Shown one piece after another: positions 13,694 through 20,254 of a DNA stretch of 64,000 bases. Made by a program: the position numbers and the translations under genes. The notes under the pieces are model-generated. The model ran no database searches and was not told the DNA's origin. It saw only the letters and a list, made by a program, of their open reading frames with translations. The stretch lies in assembly GCA_034520945.1 (NCBI GenBank), contig JAXHNB010000005.1, positions 512,001 to 576,000 of the forward strand. Reading direction: 5' to 3'. The DNA comes from Trueperaceae bacterium. Lineage in GTDB: Bacteria; Deinococcota; Deinococci; Deinococcales; Trueperaceae. The stretch's first letter is position 1. Every line of letters starts with the position of its first letter.

Positions 13694-15886
13694 TCAGGCG
13701 GGCCTGGGGGCGGTGCGCGGCTGGCGTTGGCGGCTCTTGAACCACACCACCAGCGGCGACACGATGAACACGCTGGAGTACGTCCCTACGGCGATGCCGA
13801 TCAGCAGGGTGAGGCTGAAGTCGCGCAGCACGCTGCCGCCGAACAGCAGCAGCGACAGCACCGGCAGCAGGGTGGTGGCGCTGGTCATCACCGTGCGGGA
13901 CAGCGTCTGGTTGACGGACAGGTCGACGATCTCGTCGTAGCTGCGGTCGCGGGTGCGGCGCAGGTTCTCGCGGATGCGGTCCGCGATGATGATGGAGTCG
14001 TTCAGCGAGTAGCCCACCACGAACAACAGCGCCGCCAGCACCGGAATGCTGAACTGGGCGTTCACCAGGTCGATCACGCCCAGGGTGATGCCGACGTCGT
14101 GCACCGCGGCCAGCACCGCCGCGATGGCCACGATCCAGGTCGGCCAGAAGCGCGACGTGACGTACAGCAGGATCAGCATCAGGGCCATCCCGACGGCGTA
14201 CATGGCGCCGCGCCGCAGGTCGGACCCGACGGCCGGCCCGACGAAGTCGGCCTGCAACACGCGCGCGTTCAGCGACTCGGCCAGGGCGTTGGGGAACTCG
14301 CTGGCGACCGCTTCGTCCTGGGTGAGCCCCACCCGGACGCTGACCAGGTTCTCGCCGATGGTGCCGTCCTGCACCTCGACCACGGTGGCGCCCTCGCCGG
14401 ACACGCCGGTGAAGTCCAGCTGGTTGATGGCTCGGCGCACGTCCGCGATGGGGAGGGCCTCCTCGCCCTGCAGCAGCACCGAGGTGCCGCCGGTGAAGTC
14501 GGTCGACATCCGCAGGCCGGTCATGGCGACGCTGCCGATGGCGACCAACGCCAGCAGGGCCGAGATCGACATCACGATCGGCGCCTTCCGCACGAAGCGG
14601 TAGCGAATGCCGCGAAGGTAGAAGCCGCCGGGCATGCGGGGCCGCTTGAAGCGAAGGCTGGCGACGTCCAACATCCAGGGCACCACCACGGTGTTCACGA
14701 ACACGGCGGCGACGATGCCGATGGCCAGCGTGATGGCGAAGCCCCGTACCGGCCCGGTGGTGTACTGGTACAGCGCGGCGGTGGCCAGCAGCGTGGTGGC
14801 GTTGGCGTCGATGATGGCGGAGAGCGAGTTGCCGAAGCCGTTCTTCATGGCCAAGCGGAGGCCACGGCCGTCGCGGAGCTCCTCCTTGATCCGCTCGAAG
14901 CTGATCACGTTGCCGTCGACGGCGGCGCCGATGGTGAGCACCAGGCCCGCCAGGCCCGGCAGCGTCAACGCCGCGCCCAGGCCGGCCAGCACGCCGAACA
15001 CGAACAGCATCGCCAGCCCCAGCCCCAGCGTGAGCACCAGGCCGAACAGCGGACCGTAGTAGGCGATGATCGCGATGATCACCGCGGCCGCGCCGATGAA
15101 GGCGGCGGTGCGTCCGGCCGCGACGGAGTCCTGCCCCAGCGTGGGGCCGATGGCGCGGACCTCCTGCACCTGCAGGTTGATCGGCAGGCTGCCGCTCCGC
15201 AGCACCAGCGCGATGTCGGTGGCCTCCTCCAGGTCCTGGATGCCGGTGATCTGGCCCTGATCGCTGATGCGGGACTGCAGGGTGGGGGCGGTGATGATGT
15301 TGTCGTCCAGCACCACCGCCATGCGGCGCCCGGTGTTGGTGCCGGTGAAGTCGCCGAAGTCGCCGGTGTACTCGCGCTTGATGGTGAAGAACACCGCGGG
15401 GCCGGTGGACGCCCCCGCCACCTGCTGGAAGTCGGCGCGGGCGGTCTGGATGATCTCCCCGGTGAAGGTGGTCTCCTCCAGGTCGTCCAGCGTCAGCTGC
15501 TCCGAGGGCACGCTGTTGGCCTCGGGTCGTACCAGTGCGAACTCGAGCACCGCCTGCTGGCCGATCAGGTCGAGGGCGCGGTCCTGATCCTCGGAGGTGA
15601 GGCCGGGAAGCTCGACGACGACGCGGTTGCCGCCGCTGGTCTGAATCAGCGGCTCGGCGACGCCGAACTCGTTGACGCGGTTCTCGACGATGTTGCGGGC
15701 GGTCTGCATGTCCTCTTGCGCTGGGTTTGGCTCCTCGGCCTGCAGGACGACGCGGAGGCCGCCCTGCAGGTCGAGGCCCAGCTTCAGGCTGTCGGTTCCG
15801 GTCTGGTTCCACGGCTGCCACAGGTAGGCGATCGACGCCAGGACGGCGGCCAGGACGAGGGCGGCTGTGAAGGTTCGCTGGTTCAT
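13694..15886 (-). CDS. secDF: Fused protein translocase subunit SecDF
   Basis: LGLDLQGG, IGPTLG, AVDGNVISFERIKEE (SecD); DFTGG, VGYSLNDSIIIADRIREN (SecF). Confidence 0.97.
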   Translation of the reverse strand: MNQRTFTAALVLAAVLASIAYLWQPWNQTGTDSLKLGLDLQGGLRVVLQAEEPNPAQEDMQTARNIVENRVNEFGVAEPLIQTSGGNRVVVELPGLTSEDQDRALDLIGQQAVLEFALVRPEANSVPSEQLTLDDLEETTFTGEIIQTARADFQQVAGASTGPAVFFTIKREYTGDFGDFTGTNTGRRMAVVLDDNIITAPTLQSRISDQGQITGIQDLEEATDIALVLRSGSLPINLQVQEVRAIGPTLGQDSVAAGRTAAFIGAAAVIIAIIAYYGPLFGLVLTLGLGLAMLFVFGVLAGLGAALTLPGLAGLVLTIGAAVDGNVISFERIKEELRDGRGLRLAMKNGFGNSLSAIIDANATTLLATAALYQYTTGPVRGFAITLAIGIVAAVFVNTVVVPWMLDVASLRFKRPRMPGGFYLRGIRYRFVRKAPIVMSISALLALVAIGSVAMTGLRMSTDFTGGTSVLLQGEEALPIADVRRAINQLDFTGVSGEGATVVEVQDGTIGENLVSVRVGLTQDEAVASEFPNALAESLNARVLQADFVGPAVGSDLRRGAMYAVGMALMLILLYVTSRFWPTWIVAIAAVLAAVHDVGITLGVIDLVNAQFSIPVLAALLFVVGYSLNDSIIIADRIRENLRRTRDRSYDEIVDLSVNQTLSRTVMTSATTLLPVLSLLLFGGSVLRDFSLTLLIGIAVGTYSSVFIVSPLVVWFKSRQRQPRTAPRPA

Positions 15887-15941
15887 GATCCTCCTGGGAG
15901 GGGTGCGAGGGCGTTGGGGTCGGGCAAACGAGGCCGTCGCC

Positions 15942-16310
15942 TCATCCGCCCTCCAGGTTGCGCCTCGAGAACCAGCGTTGGGCGCGGGTGCGCCGGACCG
16001 GCGTGCGCGCGGCGGCCCGGGGCAGCGCCGGCAGCGTGTGGCGGCTGGCCCCGCGCCACGGCCGCACGCCCGGCGTGGCGGCGTCCCCGGTGAGGAGGGC
16101 GGGGACGTACGCGACCGACAGGAGCAGCGGCGGCGGGGGGGCGGCCAGCCCCGCGTGCAGCGGTACCGGCGCGCCGGCGGGCCCTTCGCCGACCGGCGGG
16201 GCGGGGTGCGCCGCGGCGCCCGCCGGCCACGCGCCCGCGCCCGCCGCCAGCAGGGCGGCGATCAGCGTGGTGCGCAGCCGCGCGGCGGCCGTGGGCGCCC
16301 CGCGTCGCAT
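15942..16310 (-). CDS. 122-aa secreted Pro/Ala-rich protein upstream of secDF; candidate translation-arrest (monitoring) peptide
   Basis: ATG overlaps the infB stop (TGATG); signal peptide MRRGAPTAAARLRTTLIAALLAAGAGAWPAGAAA; ends WFSRRNLEGG*, 55 nt before secDF. Confidence 0.7.
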   Translation of the reverse strand: MRRGAPTAAARLRTTLIAALLAAGAGAWPAGAAAHPAPPVGEGPAGAPVPLHAGLAAPPPPLLLSVAYVPALLTGDAATPGVRPWRGASRHTLPALPRAAARTPVRRTRAQRWFSRRNLEGG

Positions 16311-18145
16311 CAGGTGCCCGGCACCTCGACCATCTCGTACGCCTCGATGATGTCGCCCTCCTGGACGTTGTCGTAGTTGGACAGGTTGATGCCGCACTCG
16401 AACCCTTGCGTGACCTCGCGAACGTCGTCCTTGAAGCGCTTGAGGCCGGCGATGGAGCCCTTGTACGCCTCCTTGCCGCCCCGGTTGAGGCGCGCCTTGG
16501 CGCCACGCCGGATCACGCCGTGGGTGACGTACGACCCCGCGATGTTGCCGCTGCGCGGGACGCGGATCACCATGCGCACCTCGGCGTGGCCGAGCACCTT
16601 CTCCTCGAACTCCGGCTCGATCTGACCGCGGATCATGCGCTGCACGTCCTCGATCAGTTGGTAGATGATCTTGTACGTCTTGAGCGGGATGCCTTGGCGC
16701 TCGGCCGACTTCTTGACGCTGCCGGGCGGATTGACGCCGAAGGCGATCACCTGCGCGTCGCCGGTGGAGGCCAACAGCAGGTCCGACTCCGTCGGCGCGC
16801 CGACGTCGGCCAGCATGATGTCGATGTCCACGTCGTCGGTCGCTTCGGACTCGCGTTGCAGCACGCCCTTGATCGCTTCGAGGGTGCCCTGCGTGTCCGC
16901 TCGGACGATCAGGTTGATGGTGGCGACGTTGGGCTTGCCGAACAGGTCGGCCAGGGTGAGGTCCTTGCGTCCGATGTCGCCCCGCCCGGACGCCTTGCGC
17001 GCCTCTAGGCGCTCGCCCGCGATCCGCTTGGCGGTGGCCTCGTTCGGGGCGGCCACGACCGTGTCGCCGGCGCCGGGTTGCTCGCTGAAGCCGAGGATCT
17101 GGGCGGGCGTGCTGGGGCCCGCCTCCGAGATCTGCGAGCCGGTGTGATCGCTAAGGCGGCGGATCTTGGCCCACGCCTCGCCCGACACGACGTAATCGGC
17201 GACCCGCAGCGTGCCCTGCTGCACCAGGACGGTGGTGAGCACCCCGGCGCGCTTGTCGAGGAGCGACTCGACCACGACGCCTTCGAACGGTGCCTCGGGG
17301 TCGCCCCGCAGCTCCTGCACCTCGGCGACCAGCCCGATCATCTCGAGCAGGTCGGGGATGCCTTCGCCGGTGGTGGCGCTGATCGGCACCACGATGGTGT
17401 CCCCGCCGAAGTCCTCGGGCACCAGCTCGACCTGCATCAGGTCGCGCTTCACCTTCTCGGGGTCGGCGCGGGGCAGGTCGATCTTGTTGATCGCCACCAG
17501 GATCGGCACGCCGGCCGCCTTGGCGTGCGCGATCGCTTCGCGGGTCTGCGGCATGATGCTGTCGTCGGCCGCGACCACGATGACGGCGATGTCGGTGGCG
17601 TTGGCGCCGCGTTGACGGATGGCGGTGAACGCCTCGTGCCCGGGCGTGTCCAGGAAGGTGATCGGTCCACCGGCGGTCTCGGCCACGTAGGCGCCGATGT
17701 GCTGCGTGATGCCGCCCGCCTCGCCGGCCGCCACCCGTGTCTTACGGATGTAGTCCAGCAGCGAGGTCTTGCCGTGATCCACGTGCCCCATCACCGTCAC
17801 CACCGGGGCGCGGAGCGGGGCGCGTTCGGCCTCGGCGGTCGCCGTGGCGCTGGGCCCGGCGGCGGGCTGCTCCTTGACGGCCGTGCCGCCACGGGGGGCG
17901 TCGCCGCCGGACGCCGCGGTCGGTGCGGGCTCGGGCGCGGCCGGCGCGGGGACGTCGCCGCCCCCGCCGGCGCCCTCATCGCTGCTCTCGTCCACCAGCT
18001 GACGCACCGTCTCCGCCGTGTCGGCGTCCAGGGTGCTGGAGTGCGACTTGTACGCCACCCCCATGTCGTCGAGGATGGCGAGAAGCCTCTTGCTCTCGAT
18101 CCCCAGGTCCTTCGCGAGTTGGTAGATCCGTACCTTTTCGGACAT
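16310..18145 (-). CDS. infB: Translation initiation factor IF-2
   Basis: KVRIYQLAKDLG, GHVDHGKT, DTPGHEAF, NKID, GFECG. Confidence 0.97.
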   Translation of the reverse strand: MSEKVRIYQLAKDLGIESKRLLAILDDMGVAYKSHSSTLDADTAETVRQLVDESSDEGAGGGGDVPAPAAPEPAPTAASGGDAPRGGTAVKEQPAAGPSATATAEAERAPLRAPVVTVMGHVDHGKTSLLDYIRKTRVAAGEAGGITQHIGAYVAETAGGPITFLDTPGHEAFTAIRQRGANATDIAVIVVAADDSIMPQTREAIAHAKAAGVPILVAINKIDLPRADPEKVKRDLMQVELVPEDFGGDTIVVPISATTGEGIPDLLEMIGLVAEVQELRGDPEAPFEGVVVESLLDKRAGVLTTVLVQQGTLRVADYVVSGEAWAKIRRLSDHTGSQISEAGPSTPAQILGFSEQPGAGDTVVAAPNEATAKRIAGERLEARKASGRGDIGRKDLTLADLFGKPNVATINLIVRADTQGTLEAIKGVLQRESEATDDVDIDIMLADVGAPTESDLLLASTGDAQVIAFGVNPPGSVKKSAERQGIPLKTYKIIYQLIEDVQRMIRGQIEPEFEEKVLGHAEVRMVIRVPRSGNIAGSYVTHGVIRRGAKARLNRGGKEAYKGSIAGLKRFKDDVREVTQGFECGINLSNYDNVQEGDIIEAYEMVEVPGT

Positions 18146-18424
18146 TCATCCCTCCCGTGCGCTGCGTCGTGTCTCGAGGTGACGATCGAGCTGTTCGGCC
18201 ACCGCGCCCGCCTGCCCGCGGAATGCGCGGCGAAGATCCTTTTCCTTGGCCACGGCCGCGCAGTCGGGGCACACCCATGCCCCGCGCCCGCCGGCGGTGC
18301 CGTCCGGATCGAGGCGCCAGGTCCCGTCCTCCGCCCGCGCGATCCGCAGCAGGGCGGCCTTCGGGGCGGAGGTGCGGCAGCGTACGCAGCGCCGCAGGGG
18401 AACGTGGCGGCTCGTCGGCACCAT
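18146..18424 (-). CDS. ylxR: YlxR/RnpM family RNA-binding protein
   Basis: PLRRCVRCR, GRGAWVC; located between nusA and infB. Confidence 0.9.
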   Translation of the reverse strand: MVPTSRHVPLRRCVRCRTSAPKAALLRIARAEDGTWRLDPDGTAGGRGAWVCPDCAAVAKEKDLRRAFRGQAGAVAEQLDRHLETRRSAREG

Positions 18425-18426
18425 GG

Positions 18427-19785
<1,359 letters not shown>

Positions 19786-19810
19786 GCGTTCACTCCTATT
19801 CGGTTGTGGG

Positions 19811-20254
19811 TCAGCGCGGCTCGCTGGGCCATTCCGCCAACCGTGCGGTGTCGATGTCGTGCAGCGTGAGTTCCAGGCGTTCTCCGTCCACCTCGAACAC
19901 GACGTTCGTGTCACTGGCCTCCCGAATCACGCCGGTGAAGCTGCGTTCGCCGCTTCGGACCTTGGCGGCCAGGTCGTGGAAGCGGGCGAAGTGCCGGGCG
20001 CGGAACAGCGGCCGCTTGGCGCCGGGCGATTCGACCTCCAGCTGGTAGCGGCCCTGGAACGGGTCCAGGCGGTCCAACTCCAAGCCGAACGCTTCGCTGG
20101 CGGTCTGCACGTCGCCCACGGAGACGGTGCCTTCGTCCCAGCGATCGATGCGGACCAGCACCCGCGGGGTGCGCGTCTTGTGCGACACGTTCACCTCGAG
20201 CACTTCGAACCCGAGGGGCGTGAGCACCTCGGCTGCGGCCTGCGCCAGATCCAT
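19811..20254 (-). CDS. rimP: Ribosome maturation factor RimP
   Basis: ATG 20254 with GGAGG SD; YQLEVESPGAKRPL motif; first gene of the nusA-infB operon. Confidence 0.93.
   Translation of the reverse strand: MDLAQAAAEVLTPLGFEVLEVNVSHKTRTPRVLVRIDRWDEGTVSVGDVQTASEAFGLELDRLDPFQGRYQLEVESPGAKRPLFRARHFARFHDLAAKVRSGERSFTGVIREASDTNVVFEVDGERLELTLHDIDTARLAEWPSEPR

Follow-up and report, generated by a model that had tools for sequence, protein, structure and literature searches.

What is the small open reading frame (ORF) that lies directly before secDF in a member of the Trueperaceae, and could it control the gene that follows it? The locus is part of a 64,000-nucleotide (nt) stretch of contig JAXHNB010000005.1, which we call the window, and the minus strand of this stretch carries, in this order, nusA, ylxR, infB, an ORF of 122 amino acids (aa) and secDF. 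An original prediction had taken this ORF for a new arrest peptide monitoring SecDF, coupled to a stem that hides secDF's Shine-Dalgarno (SD) sequence. Our results indicate that the ORF is a real gene and that its family is phylum-wide in Deinococcus-Thermus. Judged from its sequences, this leader family has every hallmark of an export-monitoring arrest peptide, and we consider it likely that it is a new arrest peptide monitoring Sec or SecDF, which probably stalls the ribosome at termination.

The leader ORF (15942..16310, minus strand, 122 aa plus TGA) is recognised by its G+C content by codon position and by its homologues adjoining secDF. As had been claimed, it is coupled to infB, its ATG and the infB stop having one base in common (TGATG), and its own stop is separated from the secDF ATG (15886) by 55 nt (15887-15941). 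The claimed signal-like N-terminus is also there: approximately the first 34 residues (16209..16310, minus strand) have an Arg-rich start and a hydrophobic segment (L16-W28) and, by hydropathy, would form an export signal or a signal anchor. A Pro/Ala-rich middle follows, most of it a spacer (15987..16136, minus strand) that in the family alignment is variable in sequence and constrained in length. The protein ends with the tail RAQRWFSRRNLEGG (15945..15986, minus strand), the putative arrest motif, and the TGA placed directly after its Gly-Gly (15942..15944, minus strand) is the putative arrest point, which would occupy the A site.

To find relatives, the single leader protein of the window was used in a search that gave just weak matches (E 5e-5 or worse), because the middle of the leader is variable; of these matches, three were situated between the genes infB and secDF, with the ends ...RAQRWFARRNLEGG or ...VQRWYARRNLDGG. 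Synteny with secDF was more productive. Two unbiased samples were not gathered by the tail, and it is on these that the conservation of the protein end is best read. In the first, secDF was located in 38 of 41 related genomes, the 900 nt upstream were examined and every frame ending there was listed; one locus was dropped since its contig ends 226 nt upstream of secDF, which left 37. An ORF ending [DE]GG-stop was present in 27 of the 37, at 52-207 nt upstream of secDF. Six others had variant ends (one EG-stop, one RLQL-stop and four ORFs ending RWNE- or RWLE-stop, all four from f5, one of the phylum's five families, which we number f1 to f5, f1 being that of the window), and in the remaining four there was no leader and infB abutted secDF. 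The second sample, 30 genomes of f2, gave 27 [DE]GG ends, one EGA, one GGG and one locus without leader. As background, just two of the 628 open frames of at least 40 aa in the window end in [DE]GG, the leader being one of them. Thus tail and synteny, whose absence from relatives the original prediction had named as fatal to it, are both retained.

Next, a profile (A1) built from 28 leaders was searched against 301 genomes of the phylum, with 15 candidates scored per genome. Matches were found in at least 151 of the 301, a tally that includes the unpublished genome G258, on which no other result rests. Note that this search under-counts, because just 15 candidates per genome were scored: in f2 it found the leader in 36 of 112 genomes, compared with the tail in 28 of the 30 genomes inspected directly. 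When 97 of the profile matches were fetched, 94 adjoined the N-terminus of SecDF. Of these, 87 end in [DE]GG-stop, two in DGA or DDG, and five lack the tail (two contig ends, one frameshifted copy and two unexplained). The collected set comprises 117 leaders next to secDF, and 114 of them end in [DE]GG (42 in f1, 39 in f4, 22 in f2 and 11 in f3), so that four of the five families are represented; in f5, one genome (L177) has a canonical tail further upstream of secDF. The EGG- or DGG-ending ORFs that the original prediction mentioned for Thermus and Deinococcus relatives, and the conserved tail, signal and variable middle that it expected from aligning the ORFs before secDF across Deinococcota, have thus been found. 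The leader is linked to secDF and not to infB, which lies upstream of it in 40 of 42 loci of f1, 11 of 11 of f3 and 33 of 41 of f4, and in none of the 23 of f2.

The family is restricted to the Deinococcus-Thermus phylum. A second profile (A2), containing all 117 leaders, was searched against 1.84 billion proteins and returned 99 representatives at E <=0.001, of 88-157 aa, with a match that reaches the C-terminus in nearly all; excluding the window's own, 92 of 98 end in [DE]GG. Moreover, the DNA pattern R-L-Q-L-[DE]-G-G-(stop or Trp) was scanned over one genome per species in 185,579 species. This gave 113 stretches, 80 of which were fetched, and secDF lay downstream in 12: those of Thermus arciformis, Thermus caliditerrae, two Thermus sp., a Meiothermus sp. 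and a Thermaceae record, together with one Trueperaceae, three Deinococcales and one Deinococcota record and a twelfth labelled 'uncultured bacterium'. No secDF was found downstream in the other 68 of the 80 fetched records. Pfam and NCBIfam matched no family to any of 28 members.

The tail itself was profiled over the 114 [DE]GG leaders. Positions -2 and -1 are Gly in all 114, and position -3 is Asp (66) or Glu (48); these three counts are partly circular, as the leaders were gathered by their end or by a profile containing it, and the non-circular figures are those of the two unbiased samples. Further upstream, position -4 is Leu in 65, Thr in 25, Ser in 14 and Met in 8, position -5 is Gln in 89, position -6 is Leu in 70, Arg in 29 and Trp in 8, and position -7 is Arg in 98 and Lys in 10, while positions -13 to -9 are mainly Leu, Tyr and Phe. 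The conservation is at the protein level, since all the Gly, Asp, Glu and stop codons are in use. Thus, the last Gly is encoded by GGC (74), GGT (21), GGG (11) or GGA (8), with all four codons also used at -2; position -3 is GAC in 47, GAG in 30, GAT in 19 and GAA in 18; and the stop, directly after GG in 114 of 117 ORFs, is TGA in 48, TAG in 42 and TAA in 24. The AT-rich relatives have the same tail peptide with other codons. This synonymous variation indicates that selection acts on the tail peptide and not on the RNA. An action at termination, raised as a possibility in the original prediction, fits these results because the stop invariably comes next to GG, whichever of the three stop codons is used.

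The rest of the leader is conserved in a different way: besides the 14 C-terminal residues, conservation is limited to the signal and one Gly motif. A hydrophobic window near the N-terminus is present in every member; the best one of 13 aa has a mean Kyte-Doolittle value of 1.6-3.1 in 116 members, with Arg or Lys before it, and the Arg ahead of the hydrophobic region is retained in 93 of 117. In the window, approximately 25 residues past the hydrophobic segment, lies the motif A-G-L-A-A-P (16137..16154, minus strand; its Gly is G54), which in the family reads A-x-G-[LMF]-x-A-P (columns 170-176 of alignment A2), approximately 60 residues from the C-terminus; its Gly is present in 105 of the 117 aligned members. 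During a stall this motif would be outside the ribosome, near or beyond the translocon. The spacer is poorly alignable, with a mean column identity of 15%. Its length is nevertheless constrained: counted from the hydrophobic window, the C-terminus is reached after 83.6 +/- 5.1 aa (range 76-109, n=89), with 77-119 aa in the first 27 leaders and approximately 94 aa in the leader of the window.

How would such a leader work? In the model that we favour, the N-terminal signal would emerge first and engage the Sec translocon, and the last ~14 residues would then be in the exit tunnel: a segment rich in Leu and aromatic residues, probably helical, with a fixed Arg, followed by Gln-x-[Asp/Glu]-Gly-Gly. 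With peptidyl-tRNA(Gly) in the P site and a stop codon in the A site, release would be blocked or slowed, whichever release factor acts. If export works, the pull on the nascent chain, transmitted through a spacer of ~84 residues, would free the stall; if export is impaired, the ribosome would remain at the end of the leader and the expression of secDF would go up. What was obtained directly is the ORF and its synteny with secDF, an N-terminus that resembles a signal, a tail conserved at the protein level, the fixed stop, the constant spacer and the restriction to one phylum; from these we infer that the ribosome stalls, that export releases it and that secDF expression is linked to the stall. 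A more specific version of the model is possible, albeit more doubtful than not: an ancient arrest at termination, chemically of a new type and common to the whole phylum, in which a helix in the tunnel with a fixed Arg and Gln holds ...[D/E]-G-G peptidyl-tRNA(Gly) against both RF1 and RF2, relief comes only from the pull of SecDF, and the spacer and the A-x-G-[LMF]-x-A-P motif, which would be just across the channel when arrest sets in, serve as the handle for the SecDF P1 head. If true, this phylum-wide module would be a direct sensor of the work of SecDF, not of general Sec activity, and one native to Thermus ribosomes.

These properties place the leader among the candidates sought in published screens. 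The four in-silico criteria of those screens (Sakiyama 2021, PMC7897499; Fujiwara 2024, PMC10987492) are an upstream ORF of a sec gene without known family, an N-terminal signal, a conserved C-terminus and a spacer of more than 30 aa. All four are found here: the ORF ends 55 nt before secDF and 94 of 97 profile matches adjoin secDF, the signal is recognised by hydropathy, the family alignments have a conserved C-terminus and a variable middle, and the spacer measures 76-119 aa.

Compared by their descriptions, the nearest in kind would be two leaders of secDF from Clostridia, LudP (preprint 10.64898/2026.10.26.761930) and uDF_DGMK-stop (PMC10987492). Both begin with a signal and lack Pro at the arrest point, and in both a conserved segment, which in LudP is a helix, precedes an acidic residue and a Gly that lie within a few residues of the arrest site; uDF_DGMK-stop requires its stop codon (PMC10987492) and LudP can also arrest at a stop (10.64898/2026.10.26.761930). 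They come from a different phylum, however, and the likeness is one of described motif. The register also differs, the Asp of D-G-[M/E]-K being three before the P-site residue whereas that of [D/E]-G-G would be two before it, as does the upstream consensus (I-H-[D/N]-S in LudP, R-[L/R/W]-Q-x here). Among the 114 tails, D-G-[M/E]-K with a P-site Lys was not found; they have [D/E]-G-G-stop and no Lys in that place. Other relatives in kind are uDF_NAP-stop and uA_NSP-stop of Bacteroidota, leaders of secDF or secA with a localisation signal and a motif at the C-terminus, for which the described toeprints place the stop codon in the A site during the stall (PMC10987492). These end in Pro, while the Deinococcota family ends in Gly-Gly, and a conserved Pro before the stop was not found: the last residue is Gly in 114 of 117, with one DGP end among the 98 library matches.

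SecM, VemP, MifM, ApdA/ApdP and RQH share with the leader a signal or transmembrane segment, a spacer, a C-terminal motif and a downstream Sec or YidC gene, but they arrest in elongation, and most have a RAPP/RAGP-like motif that is absent here. In agreement with the original prediction, no RAPP/RAGP-type motif (R/Q/H-A/G-P-P/G) was found, as Pro is not among the commonest residues (up to seven for each position) in the last eight positions of the 114 sequences. The further proposal of a different arrest chemistry holds up in this respect, but is weakened by the order of a helix and then an acidic residue and Gly, which recalls LudP and uDF_DGMK-stop. The spacers of published Sec-monitoring leaders of secA and secDF vary widely, so the narrow one of the Deinococcota family (83.6 +/- 5.1 aa) would be unusual.

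The leader family looks previously undescribed, with no Pfam or NCBIfam model. Full-text literature searches found no paper on an export-monitoring arrest peptide of Deinococcota. The terms Deinococc* and Thermus are absent from the main text of Sakiyama 2021 (PMC7897499) and from the available text of the LudP preprint and of PMC12992588. The largest screen (Fujiwara 2024, PMC10987492) included Deinococcota genomes; in its accessible parts Deinococcota appear just in the genome list, and a cluster listed elsewhere in that work is possible.

Several observations weigh against an export-monitoring peptide that stalls at its stop. The Gly motif conserved in 105 of 117 members lies in the exported part, and a pure linker would not need one. 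The variant ends (RLQL, EG, DGA and DDG, and RWNE in four f5 leaders) show that a leader can do without GG-stop, provided that these copies are not in decay and do not act in some other way. A C-terminal Gly alone caused no rise in stop-codon occupancy in untreated E. coli (PMC7544508). YajC (PF02699) was not found in a six-frame search of this genome, which bears on one of the alternatives below. Finally, three results on the ribosome-binding site (RBS) of secDF suggest that the RNA switch expected of SecM-like systems is not general: in the window, RBS accessibility stays at 0.53 whether or not a ribosome footprint covers the stop; over the 117 loci, the duplex between footprint and RBS is no stronger than in control windows (Wilcoxon p = 0.45); and over the same loci, blocking the footprint changes RBS accessibility by a median of 0.002, no different from controls (p = 0.33), with a rise above 0.1 in 13 loci and a fall above 0.1 in 10.

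This last group of results concerns the mechanism of the original prediction, a translational switch of the SecM/MifM/VemP type in which the last codons of the leader pair with the SD region of secDF and the stalled ribosome opens the stem. We regard this explanation as unlikely. The proposed complementarity is indeed present: CCUGGAGGG (15949-15957) can form 9 pairs, with one bulged C, with CCCUCCCAGG (15893..15902, minus strand), which would be the 3' arm of the stem and overlaps the AGGAGG of the SD sequence (15890..15895, minus strand). The GAGGC-GACG-GCCUC hairpin described together with it exists too, as the top of a 13-base-pair (bp) hairpin, GGGCGGAUGAGGC / GCCUCGUUUGCCC with the loop GACG (15922..15951, minus strand), which covers the last Gly codons and the stop. 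In the minimum free energy (MFE) folds of the 96-nt leader (-39.8 kcal/mol, z -2.5) this hairpin is formed (local z = -3.0) and the SD sequence sits in a weak 4-bp hairpin (CCUC/GAGG). When the stem is forced, the energy is -34.4 kcal/mol, 5.4 above the best fold, and its predicted pair probability is <=0.002. Thus the stem is disfavoured in the window because its G-rich arm is taken by the local 13-bp hairpin. As a feature of the family, this stop-codon hairpin was discarded, with a median z of -0.25 and z < -2 in 11 of 117 loci.

In support of a switch, the footprint-RBS duplex of the window (-18.8 kcal/mol) is better than 93% of the control windows from the same mRNA, and, in the window's family, windows starting 15 nt before the stop have the strongest mean complementarity to the RBS (-8.9 compared with ~-6.2 kcal/mol). 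Moreover, three genus-mates (G003, G009 and G010) have different tail codons, and their downstream arms have changed to match; their MFE folds contain the stem, and the RBS becomes more accessible, by 0.10, 0.22 and 0.28, when the footprint is blocked. Covariation of the two arms, which the original prediction had expected, is thus seen in these three genomes, but tail-to-RBS pairing is not general over the 117 loci. Five of nine members of the genus have no such pairing (ranks 0.15-0.99). A tail-to-RBS duplex in the best 10% of control windows occurs at 17 of the 117 loci, compared with ~12 expected; this includes 13 of the 42 loci of the window's family (~4 expected), but 3 of 23 in f2, 0 of 11 in f3 and 1 of 41 in f4. 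The SD-sequestering stem documented for the SecM type is therefore not general in Deinococcota, and from these predicted folds it would at best be a feature of part of the window's family. As a separate observation, the best SD complementarity in f3 and f4 is found in Leu-Tyr-Leu-Leu-Tyr codons, 27-42 nt before the stop, and may be a by-product of CUC codons.

The main rival to an arrest peptide is a small exported or membrane-anchored partner of SecDF, acting in place of YajC, for which the tail and the mid motif would be binding elements. We find this improbable, although parts of it are attractive. In many bacteria yajC precedes secDF, so the leader occupies the matching position, and like YajC it is small, with an N-terminal hydrophobic segment that could be a signal anchor. 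As PF02699 was not found in this genome, a small membrane protein before secDF could be a structural partner. In a control of 14 genomes, seven had a PF02699 match, and Thermus thermophilus and Deinococcus radiodurans had none even though both belong to the control set (that of the Rho search), so the Deinococcus-Thermus phylum may lack a recognisable YajC. The conserved Gly motif would also be in the exported part. However, YajC is conserved along its whole length, in contrast to a leader family conserved just at the signal, the Gly motif and the last 14 residues, and the YajC profile matched none of 28 members, for which there was no other Pfam or NCBIfam match either. The low-complexity, variable middle (15% mean column identity) is unlike a folded subunit, and the spacer is constrained in length but not in sequence. 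Instead, it is mainly the last 14 residues that are conserved, right up to the stop in 114 of 117 members; such an exact end is typical of stop-dependent arrest peptides, whereas structural proteins usually have ragged ends. A complex prediction for SecDF with the leader protein scored 0.00 without controls, which is evidence neither way. A ubiquitin-like Gly-Gly carrier (ThiS/MoaD/TtuB) was also considered and rejected, as there was no Pfam match and the export signal and low-complexity middle speak against a beta-grasp fold.

Another possibility, which we also think has little chance of being right, keeps the stall at the stop as proposed but makes the output transcriptional, with no part for SD unmasking. 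TnaC, a sensor of free tryptophan that ends in Pro and lacks an export signal, stalls the ribosome at its leader stop codon; the likeness to the leader would be in the stall at the stop and, possibly, in an output via a site just downstream of it. By analogy, the stalled ribosome would mask a Rho loading site just past the stop, and once it is released Rho could end transcription ahead of secDF. The genome has a gene for Rho, and no general SD-occluding structure was found. The stretch from the stop to secDF is C-rich and G-poor on the mRNA strand, with C > G in 94 of 117 loci; within the family of the window, C minus G has a median of +0.165; in the window (15887..15941, minus strand) it has 47% C and 25% G, and in genus-mates up to 57% C with 17% G. 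The gaps of 52-207 nt are also long for simple coupling. On the other hand, the window offers Rho a gap of 55 nt, which is short for a loading site; in f3 and f4 the excess of C is small (+0.06 and +0.04); and the leaders may be rich in C simply because C pairs with the G-rich Gly codons and with the SD sequence. A tnaC-like output via Rho is thus a lead from base composition.

The remaining alternative, that there is no gene and that the frame is open by chance in very G+C-rich DNA, or belongs to a conserved RNA element that happens to be open, starts from the fact that openness alone proves nothing here, because four of the six frames are open across 15945-16307 (the other two have one stop each) in a region with 87% G+C (16000-16299), but it is already contradicted and practically negligible: the amino acids of the tail are kept while codons differ, ORF and tail are retained in low-G+C relatives (loci of 44-54% G+C; AT-rich leaders of G011, G014 and G021), the three-part anatomy recurs at 117 loci, and G+C by codon position (0.83/0.74/0.95 in the leader, 0.66/0.45/0.96 in secDF) has the same coding pattern as in the neighbouring genes. 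Note that G+C peaks locally at 87%, compared with ~69% in the genes on either side, and that this peak coincides with the leader's spacer, which is rich in Ala, Pro, Gly and Arg.

The neighbouring genes, all on the minus strand, were assigned with Pfam: nusA (18427-19914; NusA), ylxR (18146-18424; YlxR), infB, encoding IF-2 (16310..18145; IF-2, IF2_N and GTP_EFTU), whose stop overlaps the start of the leader, and secDF (13694..15886; SecD_SecF_C, SecDF_P1_head and SecD_1st), which encodes a fused SecD-SecF of 730 aa. This SecDF matches the solved SecDF structures PDB 3aqp (E 1e-189) and 5xam (E 1e-175), and its N-terminus is 70% identical to the SecDF N-termini of the Trueperaceae and Deinococcales records. 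In 15700-16500, neither an intrinsic terminator nor a sigma-70 promoter was found.

Some loci depart from the common arrangement. In the leaderless loci L055-L058 (G015, G018, G022 and G024) and L271 (G143), secDF follows infB with little or no gap, and the two genes overlap in G015 (infB stop and secDF start), which suggests that the leader has been lost in some lineages. The ends RLQL-, QLEG-, QTDGA-, QTDDG-, QLGGG- and QLEGA-stop are those of L054 (G012), L046 (G037), L084 (G090), L123 (G097), L276 (G092) and L292 (G141), and among the library proteins P0005, P0012, P0056, P0068 and P0098 end in DGP-stop or DG-stop. In f5, the signal-bearing leaders of L050-L053 (G028, G040, G032 and G036; 47-54% G+C) end in ...LARFSRWNE-stop or ...LAWYSRWLE-stop, where the stop seems to sit at the place of the [D/E] of the main family; L177, of f5 type, and L217 have a canonical RLQLDGG-stop ~440 nt before the SecDF match. 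L155 (G065) is a frameshifted copy or an assembly error, where the tail appears just on changing frame (…LYLLYGRLQLEGG read in +1 gives …STSSTDGSSWKGA…) and a TGA lies in frame within the match. The leader of L133 (G283) is canonical, with …KLYVMFSRWSLEGG-stop, and is followed by ~600 nt without a frame of at least 60 aa or a SecDF match, which may be an unusually long gap or an insertion.

Other matches proved to be unrelated. A second profile match in G097 (L154) was spurious, being another frame of a long ORF without a GG end. The Acidobacteriota matches of the DNA pattern were rejected as leaders, since they are an internal ...RLQLEGGW of a ~330-aa protein unrelated to secDF; this internal …RLQLEGGW, in an open frame of ~270-340 aa, was seen in L156, L166, L189, L192, L208 and L210 (Acidobacteriota, Terriglobia records). 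In the ESM Atlas, unnamed clusters were found at 0.92-0.93, which are leads only, and for the Thermus-type leader P0007 the nearest named cluster was SecM_small (PF10818) at 0.88, below the reliable level and likewise a lead.

What would a leader of this kind mean? If the stall is real and there is no SD switch, the question becomes how a stall 52-207 nt upstream controls secDF. The variant ends are natural mutants that could show which of the end residues matter, and the fixed spacer length together with the second motif would give a direct handle on how pulling force is transmitted. Thermus ribosomes are a standard object of structural work and, as the family occurs in Thermus, its native ribosome would be available for work on the stalled complex. 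Many phyla are known to have export-monitoring arrest peptides, and the Deinococcota family would add to them a Pro-free motif that acts at the stop codon, with all three stop codons. The published families are mostly patchy, while this one is almost universal in its phylum, so the regulation of secDF by its leader would be old and stable in these bacteria.

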